64,000 bases of DNA from Escherichia coli (GTDB lineage: Bacteria > Pseudomonadota > Gammaproteobacteria > Enterobacterales > Enterobacteriaceae): assembly GCF_965641715.1 (NCBI RefSeq), contig NZ_OZ282453.1. One strand, written 5' to 3'. Positions 41,196 through 60,936 of this stretch are shown here, one piece after another; the first letter of the stretch is position 1, and each line of letters opens with the position of its first letter. The notes under the pieces are model-generated. The model had not been told where the DNA came from. It made no database searches and was given only the letters and a program-made list of their open reading frames with translations. A program made the translations under genes and the position numbers.

Positions 41196-41270
41196 GAATA
41201 TTTCAAGTTTTTTAAAATCACCTGTATATCAATCATTTAAAATGAAAAAACAGTCTTTATAAATCATCGA

Positions 41271-41292
41271 GCAATACACAGCGCAATACACG
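41271..41292. repeat. Tandem GCAATACACAG / CGCAATACACG motif near the satellite left end; candidate integrase arm site
   Basis: Same motif occurs as a tandem pair at 56094-56116 beside the int start. Confidence 0.45.
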
Positions 41293-41479
41293 TATCTGTA
41301 TTGTTTTAATGCTGATACACACCGTTTTTTGATACAGTGATTCGACCTACCATCGCGAAGCATTTTTTATTTCTTGTGTGTAACAATCTGACGAGGTGAG
41401 CACTCAAAGAGATAAGAGGCAGTAGAAATTTCGATCCCCCCCCTGAATGCAATTTTTCGTATATATATATACAAAACAG

Positions 41480-41636
41480 TGCGGGTTATGCGGGTTAGCG
41501 GGTTATCTTCGCGTGCTAAGTATTTTTTACTCTTTAATATCAATACGTTAAAAAACAACGTATCTAAATATCAGCCAGAATGTAACCCGCAAGACATTCA
41601 AAATAACCCGCAAACACCACTCAAATAACCCGCAAA
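41480..41636. repeat. Iteron cluster B: three direct TGCGGGTTAT-like copies and three inverted ATAACCCGCAA copies around an AT-rich spacer
   Basis: Direct copies at 41480-41508; inverted at 41582-41591, 41603-41613, 41626-41636; same consensus as cluster A. Confidence 0.6.
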
Positions 41637-41714
41637 AACATCCCTGAAAGTGGGTGCCGATAATACTGAAAATTTATTCCATTAAATGAGCATTGTCCTC
41701 TCTCATCCATTCCG

Positions 41715-43376
41715 TTACACACCATCAAACGTCGCAAGCCGCTCTTTGTGGCTGTCGCTCATATCGAATGCAAATTCCTCATGCTCTGCCTGGAATGTGC
41801 CAAACGCCATCAGCGCCGCAACGCTCGGGTCTATCTTGTTGGATGATTTTTTCTTGTTCGGCTTGATATTGGCGTTCGCGTCACTCTGCATCACAACATT
41901 ACTCATTGACCAGGCCAGCACCGGATCACCACGATGCACAATCACCTTCCGGTTAACAAAAACTTCGAACGATTTCGCCGCCGGACTGAAACGAAGGTAC
42001 GTTTGCGGGAACGGCTCCACCTCAAATCCCGCCCCCTGTAGCTGTGTTCTCAGGTGAGTGGCGTTCCATGTATCGAAGCCCACCAGCCTGATACTGAAAT
42101 TCTCTGCATCCACCATGATGTCATCACGGATACGGTCATAATCAATGCAGTCACCCGGTGTTGTGCGTATCCAGCCCGCCTTTACCCACTGGCGATAAAT
42201 GGCGCGGTTTTTATTGGCGGGGTTCTGTAACTGAAATTCCGGCAGATAGTGACGGGAAACCAGCATAATCTTTTTACCGACCGGAAAGGCATAGCACACG
42301 CTGGAAATATCGCTGGTTGATGATAAGTCCAGCCCCACGTAGCACTCCTGCCCGTATAAATCCGCCTCCGCGAACGTTCCGGCGCACTCCGCCCATGCAC
42401 CGTTACCCATCCACGGCGTAGCCCCCTGACACCAGATATTGAATCGCTTGGTGAGCATTTCCACCCACTGCGACGGAATACCCCGCGCTTTCTGGATGGT
42501 TGAGGCCAGTTTTTCACGATCGACGGAAACATCGATATTGGGATTCGCCTTTATCCACATCGCCGGATCGTCAACCTCGCTTTCATCATCCAGCTCGTAA
42601 ATCAGTACGAACATGGATTCGTTCACCTCTTCACCATCCAGTATCTGGCAGCAATAGTCGTAGTGTTGTTTACAGGCTGAAACAACGTTGCTCCCCGATG
42701 TGGTGATGGCAAATAATAACCCCTCCGGACGCGCCCCCATTCCCAGTTCAAGCGCGGAATAAACCCCGTTGTCAGGGTGCAGGTGATATTCATCTACAAT
42801 GGCAAGACTCGGGTTTGTACCTTCAATGGTTGCCGCTTTTGCTGCCAGTGGCTTTAACAGGCTGTTGGTTTTCGGGTGTATCACCTTGTGTGCCTGAATA
42901 TTTACCCGCTTTCGTAACGGTCGGGATAAAAGGCACATCTGACGCGCATCATCAAACACGATCCGCGCCTGATCACGACTCACGGCGGCGGTGTAAATAT
43001 CCTGCTGCCCGTTTTCCATAACCAGAAACCAGTTAGCCAGGATAGCGGCGACCGTGGATTTGGCATTTTTTCGCGGTACTTCAATGAATGCGCTGGTGTA
43101 TTTGCGCCGTCCGGTGGCCTTAACCTTAAAGCCCAGGATGCACGCAAAGGCGAACTGCTGCCACGGCTCCAGCTCAATGGGGCTACCGCGCATTGCGCCT
43201 TTTACGTGCGGACACACCCTGGAAAAGGCAATAAACTGCTCCACGACCTCCGGATCGAACGTGTAAAGGGGGTTTTCAAGGTCAGAAAAATACCGTTTAA
43301 CGGCCTGTTTCAGTCGTTTACAGGCCGTAATTTTGCCGTTTTTTACGCCTTCTGCGTACTCATGCCAGGCGGTCAA
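41715..43376 (-). CDS. Terminase large subunit (satellite copy, intact)
   Basis: 553 aa; ATPase and nuclease regions; homologous to but diverged from the interrupted prophage TerL. Confidence 0.9.
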   Translation of the reverse strand: MTAWHEYAEGVKNGKITACKRLKQAVKRYFSDLENPLYTFDPEVVEQFIAFSRVCPHVKGAMRGSPIELEPWQQFAFACILGFKVKATGRRKYTSAFIEVPRKNAKSTVAAILANWFLVMENGQQDIYTAAVSRDQARIVFDDARQMCLLSRPLRKRVNIQAHKVIHPKTNSLLKPLAAKAATIEGTNPSLAIVDEYHLHPDNGVYSALELGMGARPEGLLFAITTSGSNVVSACKQHYDYCCQILDGEEVNESMFVLIYELDDESEVDDPAMWIKANPNIDVSVDREKLASTIQKARGIPSQWVEMLTKRFNIWCQGATPWMGNGAWAECAGTFAEADLYGQECYVGLDLSSTSDISSVCYAFPVGKKIMLVSRHYLPEFQLQNPANKNRAIYRQWVKAGWIRTTPGDCIDYDRIRDDIMVDAENFSIRLVGFDTWNATHLRTQLQGAGFEVEPFPQTYLRFSPAAKSFEVFVNRKVIVHRGDPVLAWSMSNVVMQSDANANIKPNKKKSSNKIDPSVAALMAFGTFQAEHEEFAFDMSDSHKERLATFDGV

Positions 43377-43716
43377 GCTCGTCCTCTTCCTCTGTTTCCG
43401 GTGGATTTCTGCGGCGACTTACCGGGTCAAAACCCAGCAAAGAAGCCATTTTGATCATTATTCTTTCAGCGTCAGCCTTTGCGCTCAGGGCGGGGTTTCT
43501 GCTCTCGCTGCCCTGACTGTTAACAATGCTGAACCCGCGCGTGGCAAGGTCTTCGACGGCTTTGCGGTATATGGAGTAGTTAACGCAATACAGCTCCAGA
43601 TTGCTCCAGTCGGCGGGGGTAAGGTCTTCCCGTCCGGAAAGCTGGCGCGATTTTTCCTTCCACTGCCTGACCGCGATTTCATCCAGGTAAGCGGGGGCTT
43701 TTGGTGGTCTTGCCAT
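43360..43716 (-). CDS. Terminase small subunit, P27-like (satellite copy)
   Basis: ORF 43360-43857; likely start MARPPKAPAYLDEIAVRQWKEK; homologous to prophage TerS at 57273-57755. Confidence 0.75.
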   Translation of the reverse strand: MARPPKAPAYLDEIAVRQWKEKSRQLSGREDLTPADWSNLELYCVNYSIYRKAVEDLATRGFSIVNSQGSESRNPALSAKADAERIMIKMASLLGFDPVSRRRNPPETEEEDELDRLA

Positions 43717-43814
43717 GTTCTTTTTTCGCCCAATTATTTTCAAAAAAATTCCCGTGCACAAAAATTTGAGGAGGCGGTCGGTGTCCGGCAGGGACGGTTT
43801 TGTCCTGAAAACCT

Positions 43815-43825
43815 CCCCCCCCCCC
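43815..43825. repeat. Homopolymeric C11 tract between satellite HNH and terS
   Basis: Counted directly: 11 consecutive C on the plus strand, about 100 bp upstream of the terS start. Confidence 0.6.
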
Positions 43826-43835
43826 TCTGACGGCC

Positions 43836-44021
43836 TCACCAGCGATTGCGAAAACATTCCATGACCTCGCGGTCACGGTCGGTTAATCGCTTCGCTGTGG
43901 TGCGTTCTGTGCGCCCTGTCCTGTTGGCTTTGTGCCCTGTCTCCTGTGTCTTCCATAAGTCACGCTGCCTTATCAGTCCACGTATCAGCCTGTTTTGCTC
44001 CTGTTCAGTCATCATCGCCAT
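43836..44021 (-). CDS. Small hypothetical ORF between HNH and terS
   Basis: About 61 aa MAMMTEQEQNRLIRGLIRQRDLW...; basic protein; may not be expressed. Confidence 0.25.
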   Translation of the reverse strand: MAMMTEQEQNRLIRGLIRQRDLWKTQETGHKANRTGRTERTTAKRLTDRDREVMECFRNRW

Positions 44022-44445
44022 ACATCCAGTCGTTACGGTGTGCCGCCCGTTCTTCCTGCTCGCGATACATACCCGCCTTACGGTTCGCTTTCGTGGCTGG
44101 ATCTTCCCGTGTTGTCTTACGGTTATGGCACGTCTGGCACAATGCCTGGTGGTTCCACTCAGGCCAGAAGAGAACATCACCGCCGCCATTGATGGGAATG
44201 ATGTGATCCACCACAAGAGCTGGCGTATAAATCCCCTTAGCCAGACAACGCACGCATAACGGATTTTTGCTCAGGTACAGGGCGCGGTATTTGTCCCACT
44301 GTCGGGAATACCCGCGCGCGCGGCGGTGTCCCCGTCTGGCATCCTCTGCACGCCATGCAGCCCGCCTGTGATCTTCGCACTTGCCGGACTTCACGCGCTT
44401 ATTACAGCCCGGCTCAGTGCATCGCCTTAATGGTTGCCACGGCAT
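44005..44445 (-). CDS. HNH endonuclease (packaging-associated, satellite copy)
   Basis: 146 aa; Cys-rich HNH core VDHIIPINGGGD...CQTCHNRKT; sits next to terS. Confidence 0.85.
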   Translation of the reverse strand: MPWQPLRRCTEPGCNKRVKSGKCEDHRRAAWRAEDARRGHRRARGYSRQWDKYRALYLSKNPLCVRCLAKGIYTPALVVDHIIPINGGGDVLFWPEWNHQALCQTCHNRKTTREDPATKANRKAGMYREQEERAAHRNDWMYGDDD

Positions 44446-44744
44446 CAGTACACCCCTACATCACGATAAACCGACCAGAGCGCAGAAATAGCCATAGGCA
44501 GTTCAGACTGCTCCACAGGTGAAACCGCTTCCCTGTTCTCGTACAGGAAAGCGATGTACATCAGGCAACCAACACGTATTGCCGGGGTAAATTCCAGCCC
44601 GTCTTCAAAACGTTTCCCGATATGCTTCTGGCAGGCTTCCAGCGCCGCATCGGTATACATTTTCAGAAGTTCGCCCTCACCTGAGAAGTCATCAAGGCGA
44701 AGATGTGCCCTGACTTCATCAGGTGTAATTTTTTCTTCACTCAT
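44445..44744 (-). CDS. gp6-like head-tail connector protein (satellite copy)
   Basis: ORF 44445-44825; likely start MSEEKITPDEVRAHLRLDDFSGEGELLKMYTDAALEA. Confidence 0.6.
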   Translation of the reverse strand: MSEEKITPDEVRAHLRLDDFSGEGELLKMYTDAALEACQKHIGKRFEDGLEFTPAIRVGCLMYIAFLYENREAVSPVEQSELPMAISALWSVYRDVGVY

Positions 44745-46041
44745 CTTTTTCACCTTTAATTTCCACCGTCTGCTTCCATGCCTGGCTGAACTCGTCACCA
44801 CCTTCACGCGGCGGCATCCCCTCACGTTCGCGGGCTTCGTTCGGATTCATGATCCCGTTCTTAATCCCTTTCTCATACGTGGCGTAACGCTCGGTTGGAG
44901 TAGCGCGCAGTAAATCGGCTGAATCAAACTCAACCAGATAACGGGTACCAGGTATGGGAGAAGCCACCAGCAAAGCGGCCTTAATTTGCTGTTCGAAGTT
45001 CGCCAGCCATGGGCGCATTGTCATGGTCAGAAACGCGCGGCTTGCCTCACTGAAATTGCTGTAGGTGCTGTTGCTGTATTCCTGAAGAAAAATCGGCGAC
45101 ACGTTGAACATCCGGGCGATGTCTTCAATGGAGAAGCGACGGGAGGCCAGCCATTCTGCATCCTGGTTACTCATCCCCAGTTGCTTGTAATCCATACCCC
45201 CTTCAAGGATTGGCGTTTTTCCGGCATTTTTCGCCCCCTTGTAGCGTTCCAGGGCGTCTAATGCCTGTTTACCTTTCACGCCGTCCAGCCATTCGCCTGA
45301 CGTGATAATCCCTGCCGCCATCATGCCATCTTTCATAATGCTGGCTCCGTGACGCTGTTGAGCAAGGCCAAGCCCCAGCGCCTCACGGCAAATCGTGACA
45401 GGGGAGCGCCCCAGAAAGCCATCATCCGAGGCATAGCGGAGATGCAGAACTTCTTCCTGCAAATACGTGCGCACCGTTCCTGTATAGGGTTCGGTGATGG
45501 TATAGCGGTATTTGTGTGCGCCAGTGCGTTCCGGTACAACACACCCCGGCGCATAAGGATGAAGTGATTTTGGCTGACCGTCCCGCCCCCACTCAATAAC
45601 CGCATAGGCGTTACCGTTCAGCAGGCAGTGACGCATCATTGTGCGTTTAAACTGGTAAGGTGTCTGGCACGAATTAGGCTGCTCATTCAGCAGAATATCG
45701 ACCGGGTGACTGTCCAGCCATTCCCGCGCCTCCCTGCCCTTGTCATTGCGTACCAGATACAGATAACACGGCATCGTGGCCACCGCCTCAGCGATGACAG
45801 AAACCGCGTTCATCACAGCAGGCAATGATTCAGCCGTCCCGGCAGAAACATATTCTCCGGATCCGGTATTCGGTACGCCGGACAGCGCCAGAAAATCATC
45901 AATGGACAGGTTACGCAGATCGCTTTTTTTACGACTAAAAGGCCACCACATATCACAACCCCGCCAGTTCAGCCCAGCGATGACGATTATTTCCTGTCGG
46001 GCGTAATTCAGGGTGCTGTGCAAACAACGAACGGTGGGCAA
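44737..46041 (-). CDS. Portal protein, HK97 family (satellite copy)
   Basis: 434-aa ORF; FSIEDIARMFNVSPIFL region; true start may be MWWPF near 45951. Confidence 0.85.
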   Translation of the reverse strand: MPTVRCLHSTLNYARQEIIVIAGLNWRGCDMWWPFSRKKSDLRNLSIDDFLALSGVPNTGSGEYVSAGTAESLPAVMNAVSVIAEAVATMPCYLYLVRNDKGREAREWLDSHPVDILLNEQPNSCQTPYQFKRTMMRHCLLNGNAYAVIEWGRDGQPKSLHPYAPGCVVPERTGAHKYRYTITEPYTGTVRTYLQEEVLHLRYASDDGFLGRSPVTICREALGLGLAQQRHGASIMKDGMMAAGIITSGEWLDGVKGKQALDALERYKGAKNAGKTPILEGGMDYKQLGMSNQDAEWLASRRFSIEDIARMFNVSPIFLQEYSNSTYSNFSEASRAFLTMTMRPWLANFEQQIKAALLVASPIPGTRYLVEFDSADLLRATPTERYATYEKGIKNGIMNPNEAREREGMPPREGGDEFSQAWKQTVEIKGEKDE

Positions 46042-46513
46042 TCTCCACGCCGGATTCGGGATAAGCAGGCATCGACGTTATCGTGATTTCACGGAGTTCT
46101 GCGGCGGTAACAGTGCGCAGATACGGTTTTTGCGCGATATTCCACTCTTCGCATAATGCGCGAAAGCCAAAGCTCATTCCTGTAATGTCGCCACGCTCCA
46201 CCAGCGTAAGCACATCTTTTCCAAGCTGGGTATCAGGCGGTGTCAGTTCAAAACGTAGCCCGGTGTTGTCCTCAGTCAGTACCAGTGTTCCGGATTTGGT
46301 GCGCCCCAGCAGTCGGGTATAGTCATGCTCATACAGGCAGCGCACATCATTACCCGCCGCCAGATAGTCAGCAAAAGCCCCCGGCGTGAACTGTTCGCGG
46401 AATTCGTCCCAGATAATTTCTGAAAGGCTGTTCCAGCGAACGGCATACCCCACCAGCTTTTTATTGCTGGCGGTCAGTTCAGATGTGCGGATTTCAAAAT
46501 CGGTGTTTTTCAT
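45953..46513 (-). CDS. Prohead protease, HK97 family (satellite copy)
   Basis: 186 aa; VGYAVRWNSLSE...FTPGAF motif region. Confidence 0.85.
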   Translation of the reverse strand: MKNTDFEIRTSELTASNKKLVGYAVRWNSLSEIIWDEFREQFTPGAFADYLAAGNDVRCLYEHDYTRLLGRTKSGTLVLTEDNTGLRFELTPPDTQLGKDVLTLVERGDITGMSFGFRALCEEWNIAQKPYLRTVTAAELREITITSMPAYPESGVEIAHRSLFAQHPELRPTGNNRHRWAELAGL

Positions 46514-46567
46514 CGGTGTACTCCATAAAGCTGAAAAAGGAGGCCGCAGCCTCCTCCTTACTCATGA

Positions 46568-47737
46568 CTAGCCAGCTTTCATTTCCAGAATTTTGATGGC
46601 GTTTGAATCCACCACACCACCGCCCAGATATTTATCCGTGTGGACCTTGTAGAATCCGGGCTCAGTAATGTTGTCCGGTCGGGTGCGAATCCCTGTTACA
46701 TGATCAACGATGAAATAACCACGACTGAAATCGCCAACCGCTAGCGGTGCTTTTCCTGCGCCGATGTCCGGCATGGACTCCAGGCAGAAAACAGGACGAC
46801 CAAGCAACATATCCGGCGCACCTTCTTTAAGGCTGTCGCGCCAGATATAATCGCCATTCTCATTTTTCAGCTTCTGTAGTGTCCCTGCCGTGCCCGAGTT
46901 CATCACCCAGACGGCATTTTTGCGGTATTTCGCTTTCAGCTTGTAGAGAATGTCGATCAGTTCGTCCGCTGTAATGGCGGTTCCACTTGCCGCTACCACT
47001 TTTTCAATGGTGCCAAAAGCGCGGGTTTTGTCACTGGTCGCCGCACGGGTGTAAGCCATGAAGCCTTTCGGCTTGCCGTTACCGTCGCCATTAACAAAAT
47101 CATCCTCTTCGGTGCTGGCGAACGTGTCGGCAATTTCGGAGGATAACCAGCCCAGAATATCCACCTCTGAAAAATCCAGGATTTCCTGCGTGGTTTTCGG
47201 GTAGGCGTAGATCGGATTCAGCTTGATGGTTACACGTTCAATTTTCGGGGTGTTGGTTTCACTACGTGCGCAGCCTTCTGTGCCTCGTCCTACAGTTGCG
47301 CCGCCAGTGGAAACCAGTTTCTGAAACTCATTTGATTTTGCGGTCTTCACGGTCGCGATCACGCGCATAACACTGTCATCCTGTAGCTGGCGCATGACTT
47401 CGCGATCAAGCTCAGGAATTACGGTATATCCGCCATCCCTGCCGCTGTCAGTGCTGGTGGACAGTGATCGCACATCTCCGGTTACGATGTAGTTACGCAA
47501 TTCATCAGATGATAATTTCTGGATGCCCGTTCCTGGCTTGCTGCGTTCTTCATCAGCCACAGACTCGAGGCGGTAAATTTCTGTGTCGAGGGAATCGGCT
47601 TTTGCACGCAGTTCATCAAACTGTTTGCCCTCGTCATCGTTCAGGCTGCGGTTTTCACTGTCGGCTTTTTCCAGCAGGGATCGCATCTGGTTTTTCAGGG
47701 CGGTTTTTTGCTGGCGGAGTTCGATTAATTTCTTCAT
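46568..47737 (-). CDS. Major capsid protein, HK97 family (satellite copy)
   Basis: 389 aa; coiled-coil delta domain; GDGNGKPKGF motif; diverged from prophage copy. Confidence 0.9.
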   Translation of the reverse strand: MKKLIELRQQKTALKNQMRSLLEKADSENRSLNDDEGKQFDELRAKADSLDTEIYRLESVADEERSKPGTGIQKLSSDELRNYIVTGDVRSLSTSTDSGRDGGYTVIPELDREVMRQLQDDSVMRVIATVKTAKSNEFQKLVSTGGATVGRGTEGCARSETNTPKIERVTIKLNPIYAYPKTTQEILDFSEVDILGWLSSEIADTFASTEEDDFVNGDGNGKPKGFMAYTRAATSDKTRAFGTIEKVVAASGTAITADELIDILYKLKAKYRKNAVWVMNSGTAGTLQKLKNENGDYIWRDSLKEGAPDMLLGRPVFCLESMPDIGAGKAPLAVGDFSRGYFIVDHVTGIRTRPDNITEPGFYKVHTDKYLGGGVVDSNAIKILEMKAG

Positions 47738-47973
47738 GAAGGTTTTCTCGTATTGGTTAAGATTCAGGACGTGAAACCAACACGGAGGGAGCGCCGCCCG
47801 ACACTCTCGGCATCTCGCAGATCAACCCGGCATCGCGCAGGGGGTCAGGCGGCATTGTGGCGGCTCACGTCTGAGTGCCACACGCCAACATATACATAAA
47901 AATCAGTATGTAAACATCAGCCAGAATCACCGAACAACCTGGAACAACCACGAACAAATAATTTACAAAACCT

Positions 47974-48000
47974 GAAAAAAAGACCTGGAGAAAATCCAGG
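47974..48000 (-). terminator. Rho-independent terminator separating the satellite replication block from its capsid operon
   Basis: Hairpin CCTGGA-gaaaa-TCCAGG followed on the minus strand by TCTTTTTTT; lies between the 82-aa ORF and the capsid gene. Confidence 0.5.
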
Positions 48001-48011
48001 CCTTTATCGCT

Positions 48012-48260
48012 TTATTGTTTCACTGGATCCCGCATTCTGCGTCTTATTTTCCACAGATATTCGATCATCGCTTCCACCTGCTCACGATTGGTTGCGAAAA
48101 TTTCCCCGGTCAGTGAGCTGCGCAGAAAATCATGATGATCCACAACAAACAACGCATCGGAAGAAAGCAGACGGCGATATTTTTTTGCTGTCGTGGTTTC
48201 CAGATCATCAAAACCATGAAACTTTTTATGTTGCTGGACTTCTTCAAATGTCACTGGCAT
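48012..48260 (-). CDS. Hypothetical small protein
   Basis: 82-aa ORF MPVTFEEVQQHKKFHGFDDLETT... Confidence 0.4.
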   Translation of the reverse strand: MPVTFEEVQQHKKFHGFDDLETTTAKKYRRLLSSDALFVVDHHDFLRSSLTGEIFATNREQVEAMIEYLWKIRRRMRDPVKQ

Positions 48261-48793
48261 GTATCCCCCTTTGCCGCCCGGCGCTGGCGCTTGTGCTTCT
48301 CATTCAGCGCCATCAGCCGCGTTTCTGCCTCCTGCTGTTCCTGTGGTGTCACTTCCCCACATGGCTGGCCTTTCAGGTCGTATCGTACCCCACCAGCAAC
48401 CAGGGCGCGGTAATAGCGCGGAGACTGCGCATAAGATGCCAGCGTCGCACGTAATGCCCCCGGCCCGAATGCCAGCCCCCTGACGGCGAGATCCTGCATC
48501 AGGTCGTCGAATATCCCCACCTTAAGCGGCTTCGGTGCTTCCCTGTTGAATAAGTCAGGCCACATCTCAGTGAGGCGGTTAACGCGCCTGCGGTTTTTGC
48601 GCTGGCGTTTGGTCATATGCCGCCACGGTGTCACCCCTGTGGGCTGCCCTTTGCGGCTCTGCTGTGCGTTCTGATTGCCGGGTATCACTTTATGCGCCGA
48701 TGTGGTTTTATCCCGCTCTTGCGCCGCCTGCGTCGTTTTCTGCGGCGTGCCGTAAATGCCTTTCGGTTTTCGGTTAATGGTCAGCTTTGTCAT
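48251..48793 (-). CDS. FinO/ProQ-domain RNA-binding protein (putative)
   Basis: 180 aa; PLKVGIFDDLMQDL...RATLASYAQSPRYYRALVAGGVRYDLKGQPCGEVT matches the ProQ/FinO N-domain pattern from memory. Confidence 0.55.
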   Translation of the reverse strand: MTKLTINRKPKGIYGTPQKTTQAAQERDKTTSAHKVIPGNQNAQQSRKGQPTGVTPWRHMTKRQRKNRRRVNRLTEMWPDLFNREAPKPLKVGIFDDLMQDLAVRGLAFGPGALRATLASYAQSPRYYRALVAGGVRYDLKGQPCGEVTPQEQQEAETRLMALNEKHKRQRRAAKGDTCQ

Positions 48794-48957
48794 GCCTTCC
48801 CCTGTAATTACTCTGTTCGCTGTTGTGAATTAAAACGGTATGTTATCCCCGTACAGGTCATCGTGCTGGCCTGTCTGTTGTTTTGCCCTGTTCAGTGCGT
48901 CAGTGGCCTGCCCCTGTTGGCCTTTTTTGCCGCCCGGTCGCGCCGTTCTCGCACTGA

Positions 48958-49254
48958 TTACGCTGTCTGCGATGACCTGCCAGCCCTGCCGCGTTTCGCC
49001 GTTCTGCCCTGTCCACTGCTTACCTGCATGTTACCCGCCACGCTCACCAGTTCGCCTTTGCGGTGTTTTGCCAGTGCGTCGGCCTGTCTGCCAAACGCCA
49101 GGACGGATAACCACATCGTCGCCGTTCCGTCATCTGCCTGGCTGCATGGCAGGGGAACCGCCATACTCGCCATCGCCATTTGTGTTCCCTTGCTGGTGGT
49201 CTTTAACTGCGGGTCAGCCACCAGCCGCCCGTAAGCCGCTATCTGTGCTGTCAT
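48958..49254 (-). CDS. SSB-like OB-fold protein (short)
   Basis: 98 aa; GRLVADPQLKTTSKGTQMAMASMAV...WLSVLAFGRQADALAKHRKGELVSVAGNMQ follows the SSB OB-fold pattern. Confidence 0.4.
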   Translation of the reverse strand: MTAQIAAYGRLVADPQLKTTSKGTQMAMASMAVPLPCSQADDGTATMWLSVLAFGRQADALAKHRKGELVSVAGNMQVSSGQGRTAKRGRAGRSSQTA

Positions 49255-49317
49255 GCTGTCTGCTCTCCGGTTTTAACGTTGATGGTTACGCTTGTTTACA
49301 CCCTTACGGTGAAATTC

Positions 49318-49442
49318 TGCGGGTTATAATCGCACTTTTGCGGGTTATAACTGCCGTTTTGCGGGTTACGTGCGGGTTATTGATTTCCTTTTTATTCATA
49401 CAGTTAATGCACTTATATACATGATAACCCGCATAACCCGCA
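49318..49442. repeat. Iteron cluster A (candidate satellite replication origin): four direct TGCGGGTTAT-like copies, an AT-rich spacer, two inverted copies
   Basis: Direct copies at 49318, 49339, 49359, 49371; inverted ATAACCCGCATAACCCGCAA at 49423-49442; immediately 3' of the primase gene. Confidence 0.65.
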
Positions 49443-49464
49443 ACTTTTCACCTCACACAGGGGG

Positions 49465-51588
49465 TTAATCTTCTGCCTCAGGCTGGAACATCAGCACGTA
49501 AAAAACATGCTGCTTCCCCCCAATTTTGCCGAGCGCCTTTTTCTTGTAACGGCGATCGTTACCCGCTTCCAGCATTCCGGCAGCACTCAACGCGCGGGCA
49601 AAGTGAGACGGATTAAATCCCTGTGCTATCTCACCCTCAAATACATGCGGGAACGTGTAAAAACGGAACTCGTCATCTTCGTTTCTGATACTCCCCTTTC
49701 TGTATCCGGCAAGTTCTTTAATCGATAAATCACGCTCGTCGGTATTGGGCCACGGAAGGTATCTGCTGAATCCGAACGACGCTAAAAAAGCTTCTGCCTG
49801 TTCAACCATCTGTTTAAATTCCCTGTTACCCGTGCCGAACTCCTTCACCCAGGCATTAAAATTATGCTGTATGGCATCGCGGCATTCCTGCTCATCCCAG
49901 CCAGTAACATGACCTGAAAGCACAAGCGCGGCCTCCAGTATGGCAAATCGCTCCCCCACACGGTGAACCTGTTCGCCGTAGCTCTCCGGTATCAGGTTGC
50001 GCCACCGCTCACGGCATGTCCTTACCGTGTCCTTTGCCTCCTGCTGGTGTTCTGCCAGCCATTTAACCCACTCACGACCCGCCGCCCCGTGATTTTCTGT
50101 CCAGGCATCCTTTAACGCGTCTGCGTGCGCCTTTCCGGTGCTGTATTCGTGAAATTGCGTGGCTTTTTCCATCGGAACGTTAAGCAGGCGGACAAGCTGC
50201 CCCGCTTTGACTTTTATCCCCTCCGTTTTGAGGAATGTCTCAACGTCCATTTCTCCGGTGCTGATTGCCACCGTGCGCCAGTGTTTGATCTCCCTGTTGC
50301 CGCCGTCCTTCGCCCCCTGTAATTTCCCCGAACCGTTAAACAGCGTATAGGCTGACGTGGACACCTCCCGCGCGTTTCCGGCCTGGCCTATTTCATCCAG
50401 GGGTAAAAGCCCGTCATTGTGTGCCTCTGCTTCGTTGGCGATACCTAACGCTGTGCCGTACCAGGTCAGCCGCTGCGCGTCCGGCTCTCCCCATAAACTT
50501 GATGCGATGTTCTGTGTGGTGGTTTTCCCTGCCGATGACTGTTCGAAAAGATGTACCCCGAAGCCGTCAGCGCCCACCAGCCCGATTAATGGTGCGGATA
50601 ACGATACCGCCACACCCAGCATCATGGACGGATTACCACCAGCCAGCCGCGCAACGGTATCGCGCCAGCCCTCCGCCGTTCCTGCCACGGAATAGCCATT
50701 AACAGCAGCCGTTTTTCCGGTAAACAGGACTGGCTTTTCGCAATCACCAATGACCGAACCGTCCGGCATGATGTACGCGCCAAAATGCCAGCCCGTTGTT
50801 GTGCTTAACTGCCATTCCTCATGGCTTCCGCTTAACTGCATCCAGTCAGCCAGGATAGCCCTGTATTTACCGTTGGTTGTTACGTTCAGTCCGTGGTCTT
50901 TCAGCAACCGCCAGCCGTCACGGTCGCCAATGCCACCGCACGGAACCGCCATTGTGATGACTTCATGGTTTGCTAATTTTTTCCAGCGCATCACGCGGTA
51001 ATGCTCTTTACCGATTGTCCCCGTTCCCAGTAGTTCAAGCGGGGAACATAACCACGTCTCAGGCCGGATAATTTCGCCTGACTGCTTATCCACTTTTGGC
51101 GTTACCCAGAAAACACCATCGGCGCGACTTTCAACGCGGGGCTTTAATTCATCATCGCCCTGGATTTCTGTGATTTTTTTCTTTAAGGGCAACACCAGAC
51201 TTTCCCCGCGCTCGTATTCGTCTTTGAGGCGAGGCAACTGGTCGGATAAATCCGCCGGGCTGATGTCAGTTATCCCCGCGTATTCGTATACGGTCTTCAC
51301 GCCAGCCACAGCCAGCAACGTGACGATCTGTGTAAGGCTACGTTCAGTGATGTGCCCTGCGCGGTAAACACGCACACACTGACGGCTATCATCAATAATT
51401 TGATAACCGGTAATATCTTTCAGGTGTTCATCTGACAGAACGACAGGCGGCACATTGTCGGCGGCAATATGCTTACCTGCCCATTCCTGCCACTCTTTCG
51501 CATGGCTCCACGCATCACTACCCGCAAAGATGATAACCTCCGTCATTTTGTCGGCTGGCTGGTGCTTTAAGTTTGGTGCGCGCTTCAT
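49465..51588 (-). CDS. Replication primase/helicase with P-loop NTPase
   Basis: 707 aa; Walker A-like SSAGKTT; largest non-structural gene; adjacent to iterons. Confidence 0.75.
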   Translation of the reverse strand: MKRAPNLKHQPADKMTEVIIFAGSDAWSHAKEWQEWAGKHIAADNVPPVVLSDEHLKDITGYQIIDDSRQCVRVYRAGHITERSLTQIVTLLAVAGVKTVYEYAGITDISPADLSDQLPRLKDEYERGESLVLPLKKKITEIQGDDELKPRVESRADGVFWVTPKVDKQSGEIIRPETWLCSPLELLGTGTIGKEHYRVMRWKKLANHEVITMAVPCGGIGDRDGWRLLKDHGLNVTTNGKYRAILADWMQLSGSHEEWQLSTTTGWHFGAYIMPDGSVIGDCEKPVLFTGKTAAVNGYSVAGTAEGWRDTVARLAGGNPSMMLGVAVSLSAPLIGLVGADGFGVHLFEQSSAGKTTTQNIASSLWGEPDAQRLTWYGTALGIANEAEAHNDGLLPLDEIGQAGNAREVSTSAYTLFNGSGKLQGAKDGGNREIKHWRTVAISTGEMDVETFLKTEGIKVKAGQLVRLLNVPMEKATQFHEYSTGKAHADALKDAWTENHGAAGREWVKWLAEHQQEAKDTVRTCRERWRNLIPESYGEQVHRVGERFAILEAALVLSGHVTGWDEQECRDAIQHNFNAWVKEFGTGNREFKQMVEQAEAFLASFGFSRYLPWPNTDERDLSIKELAGYRKGSIRNEDDEFRFYTFPHVFEGEIAQGFNPSHFARALSAAGMLEAGNDRRYKKKALGKIGGKQHVFYVLMFQPEAED

Positions 51589-51899
51589 TTTGCCTTTCCC
51601 CGTTCACGAATAATTTCACGTACTGCCTTAATGCGTTCCATTCCTGTAACGCGCATGATTCTGTCGATGTCGCTTAATTCTGCTGGTGGTGCTTTACTTA
51701 CCAAGGTGAACTCCCTGTCAAAGCGCATATGTGACGACACGCAGGGATGCGCATAACCTTCGCGGATATAGGTCACACGAAAATCATCGACGGTTTTGAT
51801 CGTTATCGTGCTGCCGTATTTATCCTGGAAAATATCGCCGGGGCGGATTTCAGGCCGAGCGGGGCCGCTGGCAGTAAAGCCAGAATTTTTCTTTTTCAT
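51585..51899 (-). CDS. Hypothetical protein
   Basis: 104-aa ORF directly upstream of and overlapping the primase start. Confidence 0.45.
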   Translation of the reverse strand: MKKKNSGFTASGPARPEIRPGDIFQDKYGSTITIKTVDDFRVTYIREGYAHPCVSSHMRFDREFTLVSKAPPAELSDIDRIMRVTGMERIKAVREIIRERGKAK

Positions 51900-51904
51900 G
51901 TTTT

Positions 51905-52153
51905 TTACTCCAGAGGCAGCTTTTTAGCGGCGAGCTCAATATCAGATGTCAGAGAAACCTGTGTATTTGCCAGGTCTAACAACAAAGAAATAAGAATTTC
52001 TTCTCTGCTATCGGATTTATCGGTGCTAAGGCTGTTCATCCACATATTGACGACTTCCCTGATTTTTTTCGCAGAGTGCAGGGCTTCAAATGCCAGGTCT
52101 TCAATATCATGTTTATTTCGCATAATCGCCCCCGCCATTTTCACAATCAGCAA
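51905..52153 (-). CDS. Hypothetical small protein
   Basis: 82-aa ORF. Confidence 0.35.
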   Translation of the reverse strand: MLIVKMAGAIMRNKHDIEDLAFEALHSAKKIREVVNMWMNSLSTDKSDSREEILISLLLDLANTQVSLTSDIELAAKKLPLE

Positions 52154-52358
52154 TCAGGATGGCTTTTGCCTCATTCAGCGCCATATCAGCACTAAATTGC
52201 ATAACAGCCAGTGAGTGAGGAACGAAAGCCCCGGCATATTCTGTTTCGCTGGTGGCGTGCTTATGCGCCTTGTCTGCGATAACAGAAATATCAATCAGCG
52301 CGTGCATCAGCGTTTTGATGGCTTCGGCGGCTGCGTCCGGACGGGTGTTATTGCACAT
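52113..52358 (-). CDS. Hypothetical small protein
   Basis: 81-aa ORF. Confidence 0.35.
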   Translation of the reverse strand: MCNNTRPDAAAEAIKTLMHALIDISVIADKAHKHATSETEYAGAFVPHSLAVMQFSADMALNEAKAILIADCENGGGDYAK

Positions 52359-52554
52359 GGCGCACCTCCTGACGAATACGGGCAGCGAATACCATCACGC
52401 AGCCAGCCGGGGATTGCTGGCGTGCTTCCTGTTCGCTAGTGGCCTCAATGGTAATCACACGCGGTTGTGCCGTGCTCAGGGCGATAAAACGCCAGATGTA
52501 TTTATTCAGGTTGTGCGAGTCCCGCCCTTGCGGGTGTGTGGTATGATTTAACAT
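52348..52554 (-). CDS. Small Icd-like protein (putative host cell division inhibitor family)
   Basis: ATG at 52554 with GAGGT ribosome-binding site 7 nt upstream; 68 aa ending ...SEQEARQQ...FAARIRQEVRHVQ; family assignment is from memory. Confidence 0.45.
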   Translation of the reverse strand: MLNHTTHPQGRDSHNLNKYIWRFIALSTAQPRVITIEATSEQEARQQSPAGCVMVFAARIRQEVRHVQ

Positions 52555-52750
52555 AGCTACCTCGATAATCTTGCTATCGTTGGTGGTTAGAAGCCCGGTT
52601 AGTGTTAGCGCACTGCCGGGTTTCGTCGTTTGTATTTCAATAAAACCATTGGTGTGTTTCATGTTATTTTGGAGTGAAACACACGTCAAGCCTTTTTTGT
52701 ATTTCTTTTTTGTGTATACTGAAACACACCAAATTTGAGGAGTTTCAGTT

Positions 52751-53056
52751 ATGGCGACTACCAACAAAAACGCTAAATCACAATTGACCACCGTCAGAGT
52801 CCCCCACGATGTTATGGAGGGCATGGAATCCGTAAAACTGGACGGCGAAAGCAACGCCGGATTCATAGTAACCGCCATGCGCGGTGAGATCGCCCGCCGC
52901 CAGGCAGAAGGAAGCGGAGAAAATCCCCTGGTTTCTTCGCTCGATGCACTGGCGCAGGTGGAAAAAATTGGAGTCAAGGCTGCCGAGGAGATCGGGCAAC
53001 TCGTCACCGTCGCGCGTGAAGAACTCCAGCGACGCAAGGTCAAAGAGCAGGAATAG
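52751..53056 (+). CDS. Putative transcriptional regulator, divergently transcribed
   Basis: ATG at 52751 with GAGGA ribosome-binding site 9 nt upstream; 101 aa; only confident plus-strand gene in the satellite. Confidence 0.55.
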   Translation: MATTNKNAKSQLTTVRVPHDVMEGMESVKLDGESNAGFIVTAMRGEIARRQAEGSGENPLVSSLDALAQVEKIGVKAAEEIGQLVTVAREELQRRKVKEQE

Positions 53057-53113
53057 CCACTATCAGCGCCATAGTTTGAGGAACGCAGGCGCATTGCTTT
53101 ACAGGACAGCACC

Positions 53114-53293
53114 ATGAGCGACACAGAATCAACCAAAACACCATCACCAACTCGTAAGAGACGACGCAAAAATATAGCGCATGAACATGAATCAGAAAGA
53201 TTCGCACCTTGTTCGTTTGCTCTTGAGAAATTCCTTAAAGAGCACAGGAAAAAGCTCTCGTTGCAAACCTTGGAACGAACCAAATCTGACTGA
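53114..53293 (+). CDS. Small basic protein (possible)
   Basis: 59-aa ORF MSDTESTKTPSPTRKRRRKN... below the ORF-track cutoff; followed by terminators. Confidence 0.3.
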   Translation: MSDTESTKTPSPTRKRRRKNIAHEHESERFAPCSFALEKFLKEHRKKLSLQTLERTKSD

Positions 53294-53358
53294 TCACATT
53301 GCCCACCAGCCGCAAATGTGGCATTGTTGGTGATGCTTTTGTTTTCCCTTGTTCCCAC

Positions 53359-53388
53359 TGGCGACCCTTTTGCGGTCGCCTTTGTTTT
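53359..53388 (+). terminator. Rho-independent terminator of the plus-strand cassette
   Basis: Hairpin GGCGACC-cttttgc-GGTCGCC followed by TTTGTTTTG; a second hairpin plus T-run at about 53484-53515. Confidence 0.45.
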
Positions 53389-53673
53389 GCCTGTTATCCG
53401 GCAATAGTGGCGCTTCGTCACCTGTCTGATATAATTCCACAGCTTATATTCATTTTTTGCGCAGTAGGTTAATTGTTCGCAAGGGCGCTCCGGCAACGGG
53501 GCGCTTTTTGTTTTTACCCACCAGCACAATAAAAATCTTCATTTTCCATTTTTGTAAAATTTCATGCTTTCCGGACGACTGGTCATATGTCATTTTTTAG
53601 CAGAAGATTTTGCCTTGCTGGTGGGTAGCTTCCCGGTCAACACGATGTACCGTATAATCAACACCGCGTGTGG

Positions 53674-54252
53674 TTACTGAATACGCTCACCAAAGTAAAA
53701 CTCAGGCTGGTATTCACGTATCAGCCTTTTTTCTTCTTCCTCCAGCTCACGCTTTTTGCGCTTACATGCCTGTAGCTCCCTCCCCTTCTCACTGGCACTT
53801 ATCTGGTATTGCTCTTTGCGGCGGGAAAAATCCTGTAATGCGCCCCACGGGATACCATAAGCCCCCGTTTTTCTGATACCCGGTATCACATTTCTGAATA
53901 CCCAGTTACTGAAACGATGAGCAAATGTGCCAGGCGTCGTTGCTTTGCGGCTGCGGGCTATTAGTTTGTAGAAACCTGACTCGGAGATAATGCTCATATT
54001 CTGATTTCCTCCGGGGGTGTAAGTTAAATTTACTCCCTTTTCGTCATCATCAAGCATCTGCAACGCCGTACGCGAATTGGTCAATTCCAGCGCAGCACAA
54101 ACATCCTTTGCAACAAACCACGGATCGCCGTTTAGATACACCACACGAACATCCACGCCATCAAAGCGCAGAACGACCAGATCACGAATATCACAGAATT
54201 TTTTCACATGACGTGCGTCACCCTTGCCCGTCACGGCAATATTTTTATTCAT
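53674..54252 (-). CDS. Bro-N domain protein (antirepressor-like)
   Basis: 192 aa; Bro-N pattern RVVYLNGDPWFVAKDVCAALEL...ISESGFYKLIARSRK; C-terminal charged coiled coil. Confidence 0.65.
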   Translation of the reverse strand: MNKNIAVTGKGDARHVKKFCDIRDLVVLRFDGVDVRVVYLNGDPWFVAKDVCAALELTNSRTALQMLDDDEKGVNLTYTPGGNQNMSIISESGFYKLIARSRKATTPGTFAHRFSNWVFRNVIPGIRKTGAYGIPWGALQDFSRRKEQYQISASEKGRELQACKRKKRELEEEEKRLIREYQPEFYFGERIQ

Positions 54253-54309
54253 TGCTTTTTACCTCACATACAAAAAACCCCGCATTGCGTGGTGCGGGGT
54301 TGTCGGTAA

Positions 54310-54588
54310 TTACTTATTGGCGTTTTTGTATGGGCTGTTTACTTCCTTTACTCCTGGCGGATGCATAACCCACCAGAGCACATCAGAGAGCAACCAGGAA
54401 ACAGACACTTTCCCTAAATGAGCACGAGCAGGAAATGCTCCCTCCTGTTCAAGTACCCAACGTCTGCTTCTTGAAAGCCCGGTACGATTGGCACACTCAT
54501 GTTCGCGTATACGGCGATCATACGGTTCGCCATGATCTTTCAGAATCTGAATGCGTTCTTCGGGTGTAGGATAAATAAATTTTTGCAT
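54310..54588 (-). CDS. AlpA-like HTH regulator (second copy)
   Basis: ORF 54310-54618; HTH region ECANRTGLSRSRRWVLEQEGAFPARAHLG. Confidence 0.5.
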   Translation of the reverse strand: MQKFIYPTPEERIQILKDHGEPYDRRIREHECANRTGLSRSRRWVLEQEGAFPARAHLGKVSVSWLLSDVLWWVMHPPGVKEVNSPYKNANK

Positions 54589-54651
54589 AAAAATATCACC
54601 TATAAAAAAACCCGCCAAAAGACGGGTTGATTATATCTCATTTAATTTAGC

Positions 54652-54822
54652 TCAGGGTTTCCATTCACCTTTTACCCATTCCAGCACCTCAGATAAGCGC
54701 CAGACTTTTGTTTGTGGGCCAATACATATTTTTCGTGGAAATTTTCCTTCCTTTTCAAGTAACGATCTGTGTCTCCTGCCAAGAGCGGTTAACCATGCAC
54801 ATTCATCCTCCTTAATCATCCT
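54652..54822 (-). CDS. alpA: AlpA-family excisionase/regulator
   Basis: ORF 54652-54885; HTH WLTALGRRHRSLLEKEGKFPRKICIGPQTKVW; directly downstream of int. Confidence 0.65.
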   Translation of the reverse strand, partial: RMIKEDECAWLTALGRRHRSLLEKEGKFPRKICIGPQTKVWRLSEVLEWVKGEWKP

Positions 54823-54850
54823 GTCGATTGTTTCATCATTTTCAAGTTCT

Positions 54851-56074
54851 TCACGCGTAACTATTTGAATCATTACTGTCACCACTAATTTGCTTATTCA
54901 GATAGTCGTACCACCAGTTCATAGCTTCTTTTTTTCTGTCCATATACTGGCTTCTGTTATAAACCCCGGCAACACCGCCTAATGTGTGCCCAAGCAACTG
55001 TTCAACCACATTATGTTCAAAACCATGATCACTTAGTTTTGTGGCAAACACTCTTCGCATATCATGCGCCGTCCATTTCTCCGAGTGTTTCATCCTTTTC
55101 CATGTCTTACCGATAGTTACGCTTGCCGTACACTGACGCATATCAAACCCAATCACATTTTCTTTGTTACCTGTTATTTTTTTTAACGTAACTAACCAGT
55201 TAAACATGCCATCAGGAATCGGTCTGATTATTTCCCTGCCATTTTTGCTATGATCAGCGGGAACGCGCCATAATTTCTTATCAAAATCCCACTCTACCCA
55301 GGACGACAGTAATACTTCTGACAGTCGACAACCAAAAACTACCAGGAAACGTAAAATAATTCGGTTTTCATATGATAATTCGTGATTGTCATAATCAGTA
55401 TTAATACTTCGCCATAAATCTCTGATTTCATCATCTGTTAAAACCCTGCTTCTTCGCGCAGACTTTTTTCCCACATCACAGACCTCAAGATCATCAATTT
55501 CATGACTAATCGCGTATTTTCTTACCCTACAAAATTTAAGCGCCTGTTTTGATATACGCAACAAAGCTCCGGCCTGTACAGGTGCTACTTTTTTTATTTT
55601 GTCAAAACACTTAATCCACATAGATATAGAGCAATCACTAAGTGGTACATGACCAATCACCGGATAAATATGTTTACCAAAGCACTGCCTGATATGTTCT
55701 GCTCCCCTACGCTTATCCATTGCATAATTATCAAGCCAGTATTCAAGTGCCTCACGAACGGTAACAGGTTGCAAGGTGGCTTCCCGTTCAATTTTTATCT
55801 GAATCCGTGGATCTCTGCCCTCCGCAAGCCAGGTTCGACACTGATCGCGCATCTCTCTCGCTGATTTGAGACTCAGATCAGGATATTTTCCAAGTGTCAG
55901 CCAGATGGGCGCGGTTCCCCTTCCCGCCAGTCTGTAAAAGAAAACAAAACTAACACATCCGTATTTACTGACCCGTACCGAAAGCCCGTTACCATCAGCG
56001 ATGGTTTCCTGCCTCTCACTCCTGCGCCCAAGCAGGGAACGAAGTTTTTTATCGCTCAGTTTGTTTAGCGCCAT
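54851..56074 (-). CDS. int: Tyrosine integrase, P4 type
   Basis: ORF 54851-56110; likely start MALNKLSDKKL; arm-binding N-domain; catalytic C-domain with HxxR and terminal Tyr region. Confidence 0.9.
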   Translation of the reverse strand: MALNKLSDKKLRSLLGRRSERQETIADGNGLSVRVSKYGCVSFVFFYRLAGRGTAPIWLTLGKYPDLSLKSAREMRDQCRTWLAEGRDPRIQIKIEREATLQPVTVREALEYWLDNYAMDKRRGAEHIRQCFGKHIYPVIGHVPLSDCSISMWIKCFDKIKKVAPVQAGALLRISKQALKFCRVRKYAISHEIDDLEVCDVGKKSARRSRVLTDDEIRDLWRSINTDYDNHELSYENRIILRFLVVFGCRLSEVLLSSWVEWDFDKKLWRVPADHSKNGREIIRPIPDGMFNWLVTLKKITGNKENVIGFDMRQCTASVTIGKTWKRMKHSEKWTAHDMRRVFATKLSDHGFEHNVVEQLLGHTLGGVAGVYNRSQYMDRKKEAMNWWYDYLNKQISGDSNDSNSYA

Positions 56075-56093
56075 GTGATTTATAACCCGTTTT

Positions 56094-56116
56094 TGCAATA
56101 CACAGTGCAATACACA
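56094..56116. repeat. Tandem TGCAATACACAG x2 near the satellite right end; candidate integrase arm site
   Basis: Same motif as 41271-41292; 20-40 bp upstream of the int start. Confidence 0.45.
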
Positions 56117-56245
56117 AATGATGAAAACAGCCAGAACCTTCCAGAAAAAACAAAAACGACGAACAAGAAAAAATCTTTTTCTTTCATTTGGTTACTAAAA
56201 AAATCAGGACAGGTCGCACTGTTGTTACGGCGTGATGTTACTTTC

Positions 56246-57273
56246 TTTGTGAAAAAATTCACCCGCGCCGAGACCTGCTCCTTCGCCTTTTTCGCCAGAC
56301 GACGCAGATCATCCCAGCGTTTACAGATGCCCAGGCCGGGATTCGCTTTCTGCCAGACCGTTTCATCAAACGGATCATCTCCCTCATCGAGCGTGTAAAT
56401 GATCGCAAAGTAAGAGTCGTCTTTTACCGCGCCCTCCACGTCACTGTTATAGCCACGCAATACCTTAATGGCGTAATCACGCTGCTCGTAACAAATCCCT
56501 TCCTTGTTAAACCCTGCCGTGGTGATACCAAATAAAAGGGACTGCAGACGGGCACCGGTTGCCGTTTCCAGAACGTCCCACACGTCACGGGTTTTATGTG
56601 CATGCAGCTCATCAATAATGGCGCAGTGGATGTTCAGACCGTCCAGGTTGTTTGCATCCGAGGAAAGCGGTTCAAATTTTGATGCGCTCTGCTCCTGGTA
56701 GATCGCCAGCTTGTTGAAATCAAATAACCGCCCGAGTGTCGACCGGGCTTTTCTGACCATATTTTTGGCGTCTTCAAACACGATTCTGGCCTGGTCACGC
56801 GTGGTTGCGGCTGAATACACCTCAGCTCCACCTTCACCATCTGCCCCCGTCATATACAGGCCGATACCCGATGACAGAGTTGATTTTGCGTTTTTACGGG
56901 CGACTTCGTTGTACGCCGTCCGGAACCGGCGCACCATCACCGGACGTCCGCTGCCATCGCTGCGCATGACAACTTCCCCGGTCTCTTCATTCACCAGCGG
57001 AATGACAAAACCAAAAATATTAATGAGGATAAATACATGCCAGTCCATCAACTCAATGGGCTGGCCTGCCAGCGCCCCTTTTACATGAGGCACAAATTTG
57101 TAGAAATTCAGGATGTGCTGCGCACGGGGTTCACTGAAATAAATCCCCCGCTCTTCGCCGTACTTCAGATCATCAAGAAAACGCTGGCAGGCCAGACGGA
57201 CAAATTCCCCAGCAACAATTTCTCCTGCAACAACACGTTCGGCGTAGCGGATCCCGTCAGCCACTTTTGCCAT
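56246..57273 (-). pseudogene. Prophage terminase large subunit, N-terminal fragment (about 343 codons), interrupted by the satellite
   Basis: ORF 56080-57273; terminase ATPase region through ...ARVNFFTKK, then non-terminase read-through into satellite DNA. Confidence 0.8.
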
Positions 57274-60858: not shown

Positions 60859-60935
60859 TGGTCCGCCACCGAGGACTCGAACCTCGCACCATCAACTTAG
60901 AAGGTTGATGCTCTATCCCGATGAGCTAGTGGCGG
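60859..60935 (-). tRNA. tRNA-Arg (anticodon UCU)
   Basis: Folded by hand: acceptor CCGCCAC/GTGGCGG, anticodon loop CT-TCT-AA, T-loop TTCGAGT, 3' ACCA. Confidence 0.85.
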
Positions 60936-60936
60936 T

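Follow-up and report, generated by a model that had tools for sequence, protein, structure and literature searches.

A predicted second, att-proximal unit of the replication origin in a capsid-forming phage-inducible chromosomal island of Escherichia coli

We analysed a window of 64,000 nucleotides of Escherichia coli DNA (NCBI RefSeq assembly GCF_965641715.1, contig NZ_OZ282453.1) in which the terminase large-subunit gene (terL) of a prophage is interrupted by a 15-kb satellite, a capsid-forming phage-inducible chromosomal island (PICI; cf-PICI for the capsid-forming kind) to judge by its genes, most of which, like most genes of the region, lie on the minus strand. The satellite encodes a DUF927 primase-helicase and contains two clusters of one short repeat, or iteron: unit A, directly after the primase gene, and unit B, near the left attachment (att) site. 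What unit B might be is the subject of this report. The features concerned are as follows, IHF standing for integration host factor.

About 41173 to 56228, minus strand: the whole satellite, a cf-PICI of 15,056 bp (about 15.06 kb).
49465 to 51588, minus strand: 707-residue DUF927 primase-helicase, the presumed initiator (Pfam DUF927 at residues 168-435).
49318 to 49380, plus strand: unit A, spaced iteron set, with TGCGGGTTAT at 49318, 49339 and 49371 and TGCGGGTTAC at 49360 (spacing 21/21/11 bp).
49381 to 49423: unit A, AT-rich gap of 43 bp between the iteron sets, the putative strand-opening site.
49424 to 49442, minus strand: unit A, tight iteron pair, inverted copies at 49424 and 49433, 9 bp apart.
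41582 to 41634, minus strand: unit B, spaced iteron set, with TGCGGGTTAC at 41582 and TGCGGGTTAT at 41603 and 41625 (spacing 21/22 bp).
41507 to 41581: unit B, AT-rich spacer of 75 bp, with the IHF consensus TATCAATACGTTA at 41538-41550.
41480 to 41506, plus strand: unit B, tight iteron triplet, TGCGGGTTAT at 41480, TGCGGGTTAG at 41489 and AGCGGGTTAT at 41497 (spacing 9 and 8 bp).
41450 to 41479: conserved flank of unit B, which reads CTGTTTTG(TA)6CGAAAAATTG on the satellite coding strand and is a candidate unwinding element or promoter -10.

Scored against expectation and against 100 shuffles over the whole window, the 10-mer TGCGGGTTAT has 9 exact matches where 0.13 are expected (0 of the 100 shuffles reach 9), and 18 matches where 3.8 are expected if one mismatch is allowed. 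Eight of the exact copies and 5 one-mismatch copies are located in clusters A and B, 7.8 kb apart, so that the original prediction of two clusters of a single motif, to which a scan of the window would find it confined, is borne out with one stray. This ninth exact copy is solitary at 27623-27632, in the prophage outside the satellite, and is compatible with chance. The placement and design that had been proposed for the clusters also hold: A (49318-49442) lies 22-24 bp from the stop codon of the primase gene, B (41480-41634) lies between the stop of the satellite terL (41715) and the left prophage junction, 308 bp inside the left end (att core at about 41163-41172), and both have direct and inverted copies around an AT-rich spacer, four plus two around 43 bp in A and three plus three around 75 bp in B. 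When reverse-complemented, B repeats the order of the parts of A (spaced set, AT-rich gap, tight set), and the two clusters are therefore mirror images of each other; on the excised circle they are about 7.8 and 7.2 kb apart. The IHF consensus has 6 matches in the whole window, one of them in the B spacer, and such sites are also found, read by eye, in the B-unit spacers of four related loci (L068, L086, L089 and L090; related loci are given L numbers). In L068, L086, L087, L089, L090, L093 and L095, the tight iterons of the B-type unit lead into a GTTTT...TA-tract, which is degraded in some of them, e.g. to GTTTTGTTTATATACG in L087 and L093. Neither cluster contains a DnaA box.

Our comparisons drew on a set of 80 related satellites, which were fetched via their TerL; a scan of genome contigs with a primase alignment yielded one locus, L086. 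Iteron classes are numbered T1 to T13, T1 (TGCGGGTTAT/GCGGGTTA) being that of the window, with 262 loci in E. coli. In 35 related loci we compared the type of replicase with the type of iteron 3' of its stop codon, and the two go together: the GCGGGTTA repeat follows a 707-713-residue DUF927 protein, 85-100% identical to that of the window, in 11 of 11 T1 loci, the AAGTGGG repeat follows replicases of about 470 residues, ACTGTTCA those of 605-621 residues, and CCTCTAC or GGTAGACA those of 583-585 residues. In all 11 T1 loci examined, the spaced iteron set begins 24-30 bp after the primase stop. Sequence matches of the primase in the PDB are the staphylococcal 8tch, "Pathogenicity island protein" (E 3e-15), and 5dgk, "Active helicase" (E 0.002), and there is a weak NCBIfam match to the cassette chromosome replicative helicase Cch1. 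In the published design, a PICI origin is located immediately 3' of the pri/rep gene and has an AT-rich region flanked by two sets of iterons, and its function has been demonstrated for EcCICFT073, where pri plus ori conferred autonomous replication in a plasmid-maintenance assay (PMC6092414). On its sequence, cluster A is thus an ordinary, canonical PICI-type origin, and because it already fits the published design by itself, the unusual feature is cluster B alone.

Within the DUF927 family, the iterons vary with one end of the primase. T1 primases are 88-100% identical over their last ~560 residues, and their first 150 residues are mosaic. The L068 primase, which is followed by the iteron GTTGTCCCA, is 86-100% identical to that of the window up to about residue 600, and then 52, 36 and 20% identical over the last three 50-column blocks. 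In L068, L086, L089 and L090, all of which use other iterons, core identity is 79-95% versus 36-47% in the C-terminal domain (compared with the window primase, this domain is 36% identical in L086, 37% in L089 and 45% in L090; in L087 it is 67% identical). We infer that the C-terminal ~110 residues of the primase constitute its iteron-specificity domain. Comparative evidence thus points to cognate iterons, as expected of a PICI origin, both at the level of the replicase family and, among DUF927 proteins, at that of these ~110 residues. In relatives the iteron of both units changes with this domain, in line with the original proposal that both clusters belong to the primase.

Unit B forms a discrete module of about 300 bp that is present in 137 of 5426 complete E. 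coli genomes. We measured its divergence on 18 distinct T1 B modules, in which the 8-nt iteron cores, aligned over 48 columns, are invariant in 45 columns (0.5% divergence), versus 8.5% divergence in the spacer and 14-24% in the flanks. The conserved architecture consists of 3 iterons at 21-22 bp, a spacer with the IHF consensus, 3 iterons at 8-9 bp, GTTTT and a TA tract. A distal B is found in 18 of 18 loci with a T1 primase and enough downstream sequence, and is missing in 16 non-T1 elements whose downstream sequence extends over at least 1 kb. B-type units that carry the local iteron of unit A occur in six classes of DUF927 replicons, from E. coli, E. albertii, Salmonella, Klebsiella, Plesiomonas and one unassigned contig. 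The two units may directly neighbour each other or have 2.3-7.8 kb of cargo genes between them, and their relative orientation is identical in all arrangements:

T1: split in the window; adjacent in L080, L082 and the O157:H7 cf-PICI L097.
T7: GTTGTCCCA in both units, which are adjacent in L068 and L090.
T10: CTTGTCCCA in A and in an att-proximal B, split by 2.3 kb (L086, E. albertii).
T11: AGTGGGTTAY in a Plesiomonas cf-PICI (L093), where, as in the window, A follows the primase gene and B comes directly after terL.
T11: AGTGGGTTAY in L087 (Salmonella) and L095 (Klebsiella), units adjacent.
T12: GTTGCCTCA in L089, with adjacent units and a third, distal unit at 5.9 kb.
T13: GTTGTCTCA in two adjacent units of L094.

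Since the units are adjacent in many relatives, the 7.8-kb split of the window would be one variant of a double origin. The B spacers of T1 and T11 are homologous, yet one and the same base change separates all of their iterons, and B is therefore, by this comparison, an old partner of A and not a recent copy of it.

Taken together, these observations lead us to propose that B is probably a cognate cis element of the two-unit origin of a DUF927-type PICI replicon. Once the satellite has been induced and has excised, the primase-helicase would bind the iterons of A and B alike through its C-terminal domain. On unit A it would open the AT-rich gap, load itself as helicase and prime synthesis, and B, bent by IHF, would act at a distance on the same circle, either as an enhancer that contacts A by looping, as crr of satellite P4 might, or as an additional site of loading, with opening at the (TA)n tract. 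That B is needed in cis takes up roughly one third of what we grant to the two-unit origin. We found no description of a second cognate origin unit, or of its displacement to the att-proximal end, in the searchable PICI literature, a search that did not extend to the published origin-map figure.

Several observations weigh against this proposal. T1-type B units also occur as orphans, at the distal end of satellites with unrelated replicases and proximal iterons, in L003, L005, L013, L022, L034, L036, L046, L049, L051, L083 (10056-10201) and L084 (10138-10283), among them the classical PICI of strain F11 (L083) and a cf-PICI with a RepA helicase (L084). Their iterons are intact. B can therefore be retained where its primase is absent, and other replicase families manage without a B unit of their own, which indicates that it is dispensable for those replicases; this does not bear on the T1 primase, for which a strict, crr-like requirement of B is no more than a possibility. 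Orphan units are most simply explained by module exchange between satellites. Also on this side of the balance, iteron types other than those of the DUF927 family do not form a second cluster, and classes T2, T3, T5, T6 and T8 show one cluster. The putative specificity domain has no similarity in a PDB profile search, a profile comparison with the C-terminus of P4 alpha gives it a probability of 0.05%, and its AlphaFold2 model, built from a 12-sequence alignment, has a predicted local distance difference test (pLDDT) score of 46, so that its fold is not established. Lastly, the loci in which iteron and primase covary were picked by hand, and were counted without correction for shared ancestry.

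The best of the competing explanations, which we consider possible if rather less than probable, is that B is a complete, independent second origin, each unit firing alone, which would give two initiation sites roughly opposite each other on the 15-kb circle, as the distances of about 7.8 and 7.2 kb between A and B would allow. B has the full PICI-origin design of two iteron sets around an AT-rich region, and in addition an IHF site and an easily melted (TA)6, and L089 carries as many as three units. On the other hand, the fixed mirror orientation in every arrangement suggests paired action, or merely records the insertion of cargo between the units, and orphan B units would have to be inert second origins.

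Another role, which seems to us unlikely as the principal one, is that of a control element. Primase bound at B would titrate or handcuff the initiator, and thus govern copy number and incompatibility, or it would repress a promoter at the (TA)n tract that reads into the next gene in adjacent layouts, or across attP into the integrase gene (int) on the circle. The geometry is suggestive, as in the adjacent layouts of L068, L080, L089 and L090 the next gene has its ribosome-binding site and ATG 10-25 bp downstream of the tight iterons and (TA)n, and B of the window points towards att and, on the circle, towards int (start at 56110); orphan T1 units elsewhere could serve as decoys. A simple scan, however, yielded no sigma-70 consensus at B, and nothing meaningful by way of promoters or terminators at either cluster. 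Such control would moreover be compatible with a role in the origin, rather than opposed to it.

It is very unlikely, in our opinion, that B is a functionless leftover, a duplicated or displaced half of an origin that hitch-hikes with late genes or with a cos-like sequence. Orphan B units do adjoin unrelated replicases, two of the three changes in the iteron cores occur in orphan copies, and the cos-like sequence beside B of the window is decayed, with 4 of 22 positions mismatched. Yet divergence in the module around them is about 17-50 times that of the iteron cores, the iteron switches with the C-terminal domain of the primase in six classes with the architecture kept, and a B unit is present in every T1 replicon examined.

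The original prediction had alternatively offered B as a packaging site for the terminase small subunit (TerS), and its surroundings do contain cos-type sequences:

43756 to 43777, minus strand: perfect cos-type motif CCGCCTCCTCAAATTTTTGTGC, upstream of the satellite terS, likely to be the true cos region of the satellite.
41378 to 41443, minus strand: degenerate cos-like sequence beside unit B, a G-run then TCACCTCGTCAGATTGTTACAC (motif 41378-41399, 4 mismatches to the 22-nt motif).

As a location for a cos-like sequence, directly beside B, the alternative has some merit, but for the iterons themselves, which follow the primase and not TerS, we regard it as highly improbable. The repeats, the IHF site and the inverted repeats do resemble R3-I1-R2 of lambda cosB (PMC9026076), where TerS sites flank an IHF site, and B adjoins the cos-like sequence just downstream of terL. 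The same repeats, however, form the origin beside the primase, and they vary with the C-terminal domain of the primase rather than with TerS, which does not fit a lambda-type cosB: the TerS proteins of L080 and L068 are both 88% identical to that of the window, yet their iterons are T1 and T7, respectively. B-type units are found in PICIs without TerS, TerL and HNH genes (L082, L086, L087, L089 and L090), the cos-type motif upstream of terS stands without such repeats, and L086 pairs the same cos-like flank with different iterons. As for integrase arm sites, we rejected them for B, since the unit adjoins the origin far from att in L068, L080, L082, L090 and L097 and T1 B units accompany integrases that are only 24-42% identical.

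On their right side, distal B units are bordered by sequence homologous to that upstream of the satellite terS, a G-run then CCGCCTCSTCAAATTTTTRYRC. Intact second cos-type copies lie beside the distal B in L008, L014, L029, L034, L047, L051, L083, L084 and L086, and in some PICIs without terminase genes the 22-nt motif CCGCCTCSTCAAATTTTTRYRC is the sole copy (relatives carry it at about 9955-9976 in L083, 14655-14676 in L086 and 17573-17594 in L094). This suggests that such terminase-less PICIs may be packaged by the terminases of cf-PICIs or of similar helpers. In the related satellite vB_KppS-Ant, the record of the linear virion genome opens 22 bp ahead of terS, and its other end falls within the homologous stretch with the G-run. 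We also considered that the satellite end might be a copy of the prophage's own cos, and dropped this idea as only a 13-bp IHF-like match is common to both.

These flanks and the orphan units together leave room for a more speculative extension, which we hold to be doubtful. The T1-type B could be a portable, distance-independent origin module that recombines freely with the late, att-proximal end of PICIs, so that carriers with unrelated replicases would be replicated, or interfered with, in trans by a co-resident DUF927 primase; the intact cos-type sequence that adjoins B in the terminase-less L083, L086 and L094 would similarly allow them to borrow the packaging machinery of cf-PICIs or their helpers. 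If true, one satellite would be exploiting the replication machinery of another.

The satellite itself was characterized from its ends, its flanks and the annotation of E. coli locus L001, which is 98.5% identical. Its ends and the sites next to them are:

41163 to 41172 and 56219 to 56228: att core CTG[C/T]TGTTAC, 10 bp, located by joined-flank matches and by the split of the terL profile.
41271 to 41291, plus strand: doubled motif GCAATACAC-AG-CGCAATACAC, about 100 bp inside the left satellite end.
56095 to 56115: second copy of the doubled motif, with the pattern GCAATACAC-AG-[C/T]GCAATACAC, about 100 bp inside the right end and just upstream of int.

The flanking open reading frames (ORFs; 40459-41184 and 56080-57273) match positions 169-448 and 449-673 of the terL profile and are thus split exactly at 448/449, and the joined flanks (40923-41172 plus 56229-56478) match an intact terL as one piece in 905 E. 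coli genomes. The satellite has the same orientation as the interrupted gene, and the L001 locus is likewise bordered by two fragments of another terminase gene. L001 encodes an integrase, regulators, the DUF927 protein, a single-stranded DNA-binding protein (SSB), an HK97-type capsid protein, a protease, a portal, a connector, HNH, a P27-family TerS and TerL. With an integrase, a primase, the full head and packaging set, neither tail nor lysis genes and a size of about 15 kb, the element is, as read from its sequence, a cf-PICI embedded in the prophage terL gene. PICIs inside helper late genes have already been described as helper-embedded PICIs, and a "doubled DNA motif" unique to them has been mentioned (PMC10111431), with which the doubled motif of the window is a candidate for identity. 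Both copies of the latter are probably arm-type sites of the integrase; the right one overlaps the start of int (56110), which is about 110 bp from the att core. The direct repeat GCAATACAC was rejected as the att site itself, the true core lying about 100 bp further out. An IHF consensus is present at 41227-41239, between the left doubled motif and the att core.

Other features of the region deserve mention. Directly downstream of unit A is an SSB-like ORF (48958-49254) of 98 residues, versus 141 in L001, which may be truncated or a different allele, and 48251-48793 encodes a protein resembling RNA chaperones of the ProQ/FinO family (NCBIfam E 9e-18 and 8e-16); genes for ProQ and PerC are met again behind the origin of the related PICIs L089, L090 and L094. 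An Rfam scan of the satellite returned a sub-threshold match alone and nothing at either iteron cluster, this match being to the SymR antitoxin RNA at 52555-52627, plus strand, in the regulatory region (33.6 bits, gathering score 61, E 0.004). Adjacent genes for tRNA-Arg(TCT) and tRNA-Met(CAT) at 60859-61012, minus strand, are probably borne by the prophage. A palindromic repeat array (e.g. CCTCCTCAAATTGAGGAGG ... GTTACCGCGCC ... TATCAAC) occupies the att-proximal end of cf-PICIs without a distal B (about 1150-1560 in L097 and 11800-12200 in L057). In Salmonella, a PICI with a DUF927 primase (L087/L088, 5534-6535) follows a co-oriented terminase ORF of 333 residues, of the gpA type (PF05876 GpA_ATPase), and appears to be a candidate for a further helper-embedded satellite.

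PICI origins have so far been treated as a single site after the replication gene. A second cognate unit kilobases away would alter the definition of minimal PICI replicons, for example in synthetic PICI vectors, and would account for some of the non-coding DNA that many enterobacterial PICIs conserve near their att-proximal end. It would also be a second, independently evolved example of the ori/crr logic of P4. The at least six natural pairs of iteron and C-terminal domain provide a data set for mapping the DNA specificity of DUF927 helicase-primases, and from the orphan units comes the idea that co-resident satellites might engage in cross-talk.

Replication of P4 needs both ori and crr in cis. 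The likeness to this layout that had been claimed for the window is correct in one respect, as in both elements two separate cis regions share one short repeat in both orientations, and one of them lies directly 3' of the primase gene. The initiators differ: the window primase matches P4 alpha with a BLASTP E of only 0.5, Pfam finds DUF927 only, and the two proteins are not relatives. The P4 repeat is TGTTCACC (type 1, TGTTCAC(C/A)), that of the window TGCGGGTTAT. In the P4 record, type-1 repeats are found in crr, directly 3' of alpha and beside attP, and in ori, 4.7 kb away, so that cluster A occupies the position of crr and not that of ori; crr is a pair of direct repeats, each of 120 bp, while B is one unit, the mirror image of A. 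P4 alpha is a fused primase-helicase whose C-terminal part gives DNA specificity (PMC2777425), a property that the window primase would share to judge by covariation. The P4 system is, by analogy, a functional counterpart of the two-unit layout and not its relative. The primase of vB_KppS-Ant (L085, 9938-11689) is 51% identical to P4 alpha over the helicase and C-terminal part, and its origin (L085, 11720-11935) has TGTTCACC repeats in a single cluster; within this one satellite family, replication modules of the P4 and DUF927 types can therefore replace each other.

Iteron plasmids such as R6K, with its alpha, beta and gamma origins, and pSC101 have small Rep initiators that recruit the host DnaB. 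They are like the window in their separated, initiator-bound iterons, their IHF site and their AT-rich unwinding element; the initiator of the window is itself a helicase-primase, and its clusters are free of DnaA boxes. Among the closest known systems is the origin of PICIs and Staphylococcus aureus pathogenicity islands (SaPIs), with EcCICFT073 as an example from Gram-negative PICIs (Fillol-Salom et al. 2018, PMC6092414), which shares location, design and initiator-specific iterons with cluster A; the searchable literature has one origin region after the replication gene, to which the window adds another cognate unit, equipped with an IHF site and a (TA)n tract. With cf-PICIs of the EcCIEDL933 family, the satellite shares the set of head and packaging genes and the lack of tail genes, and with helper-embedded PICIs (PMC10111431) its insertion in, and co-orientation with, a prophage late gene. 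In the O157:H7 cf-PICI L097 the origin units are adjacent, whereas in the window they are split.

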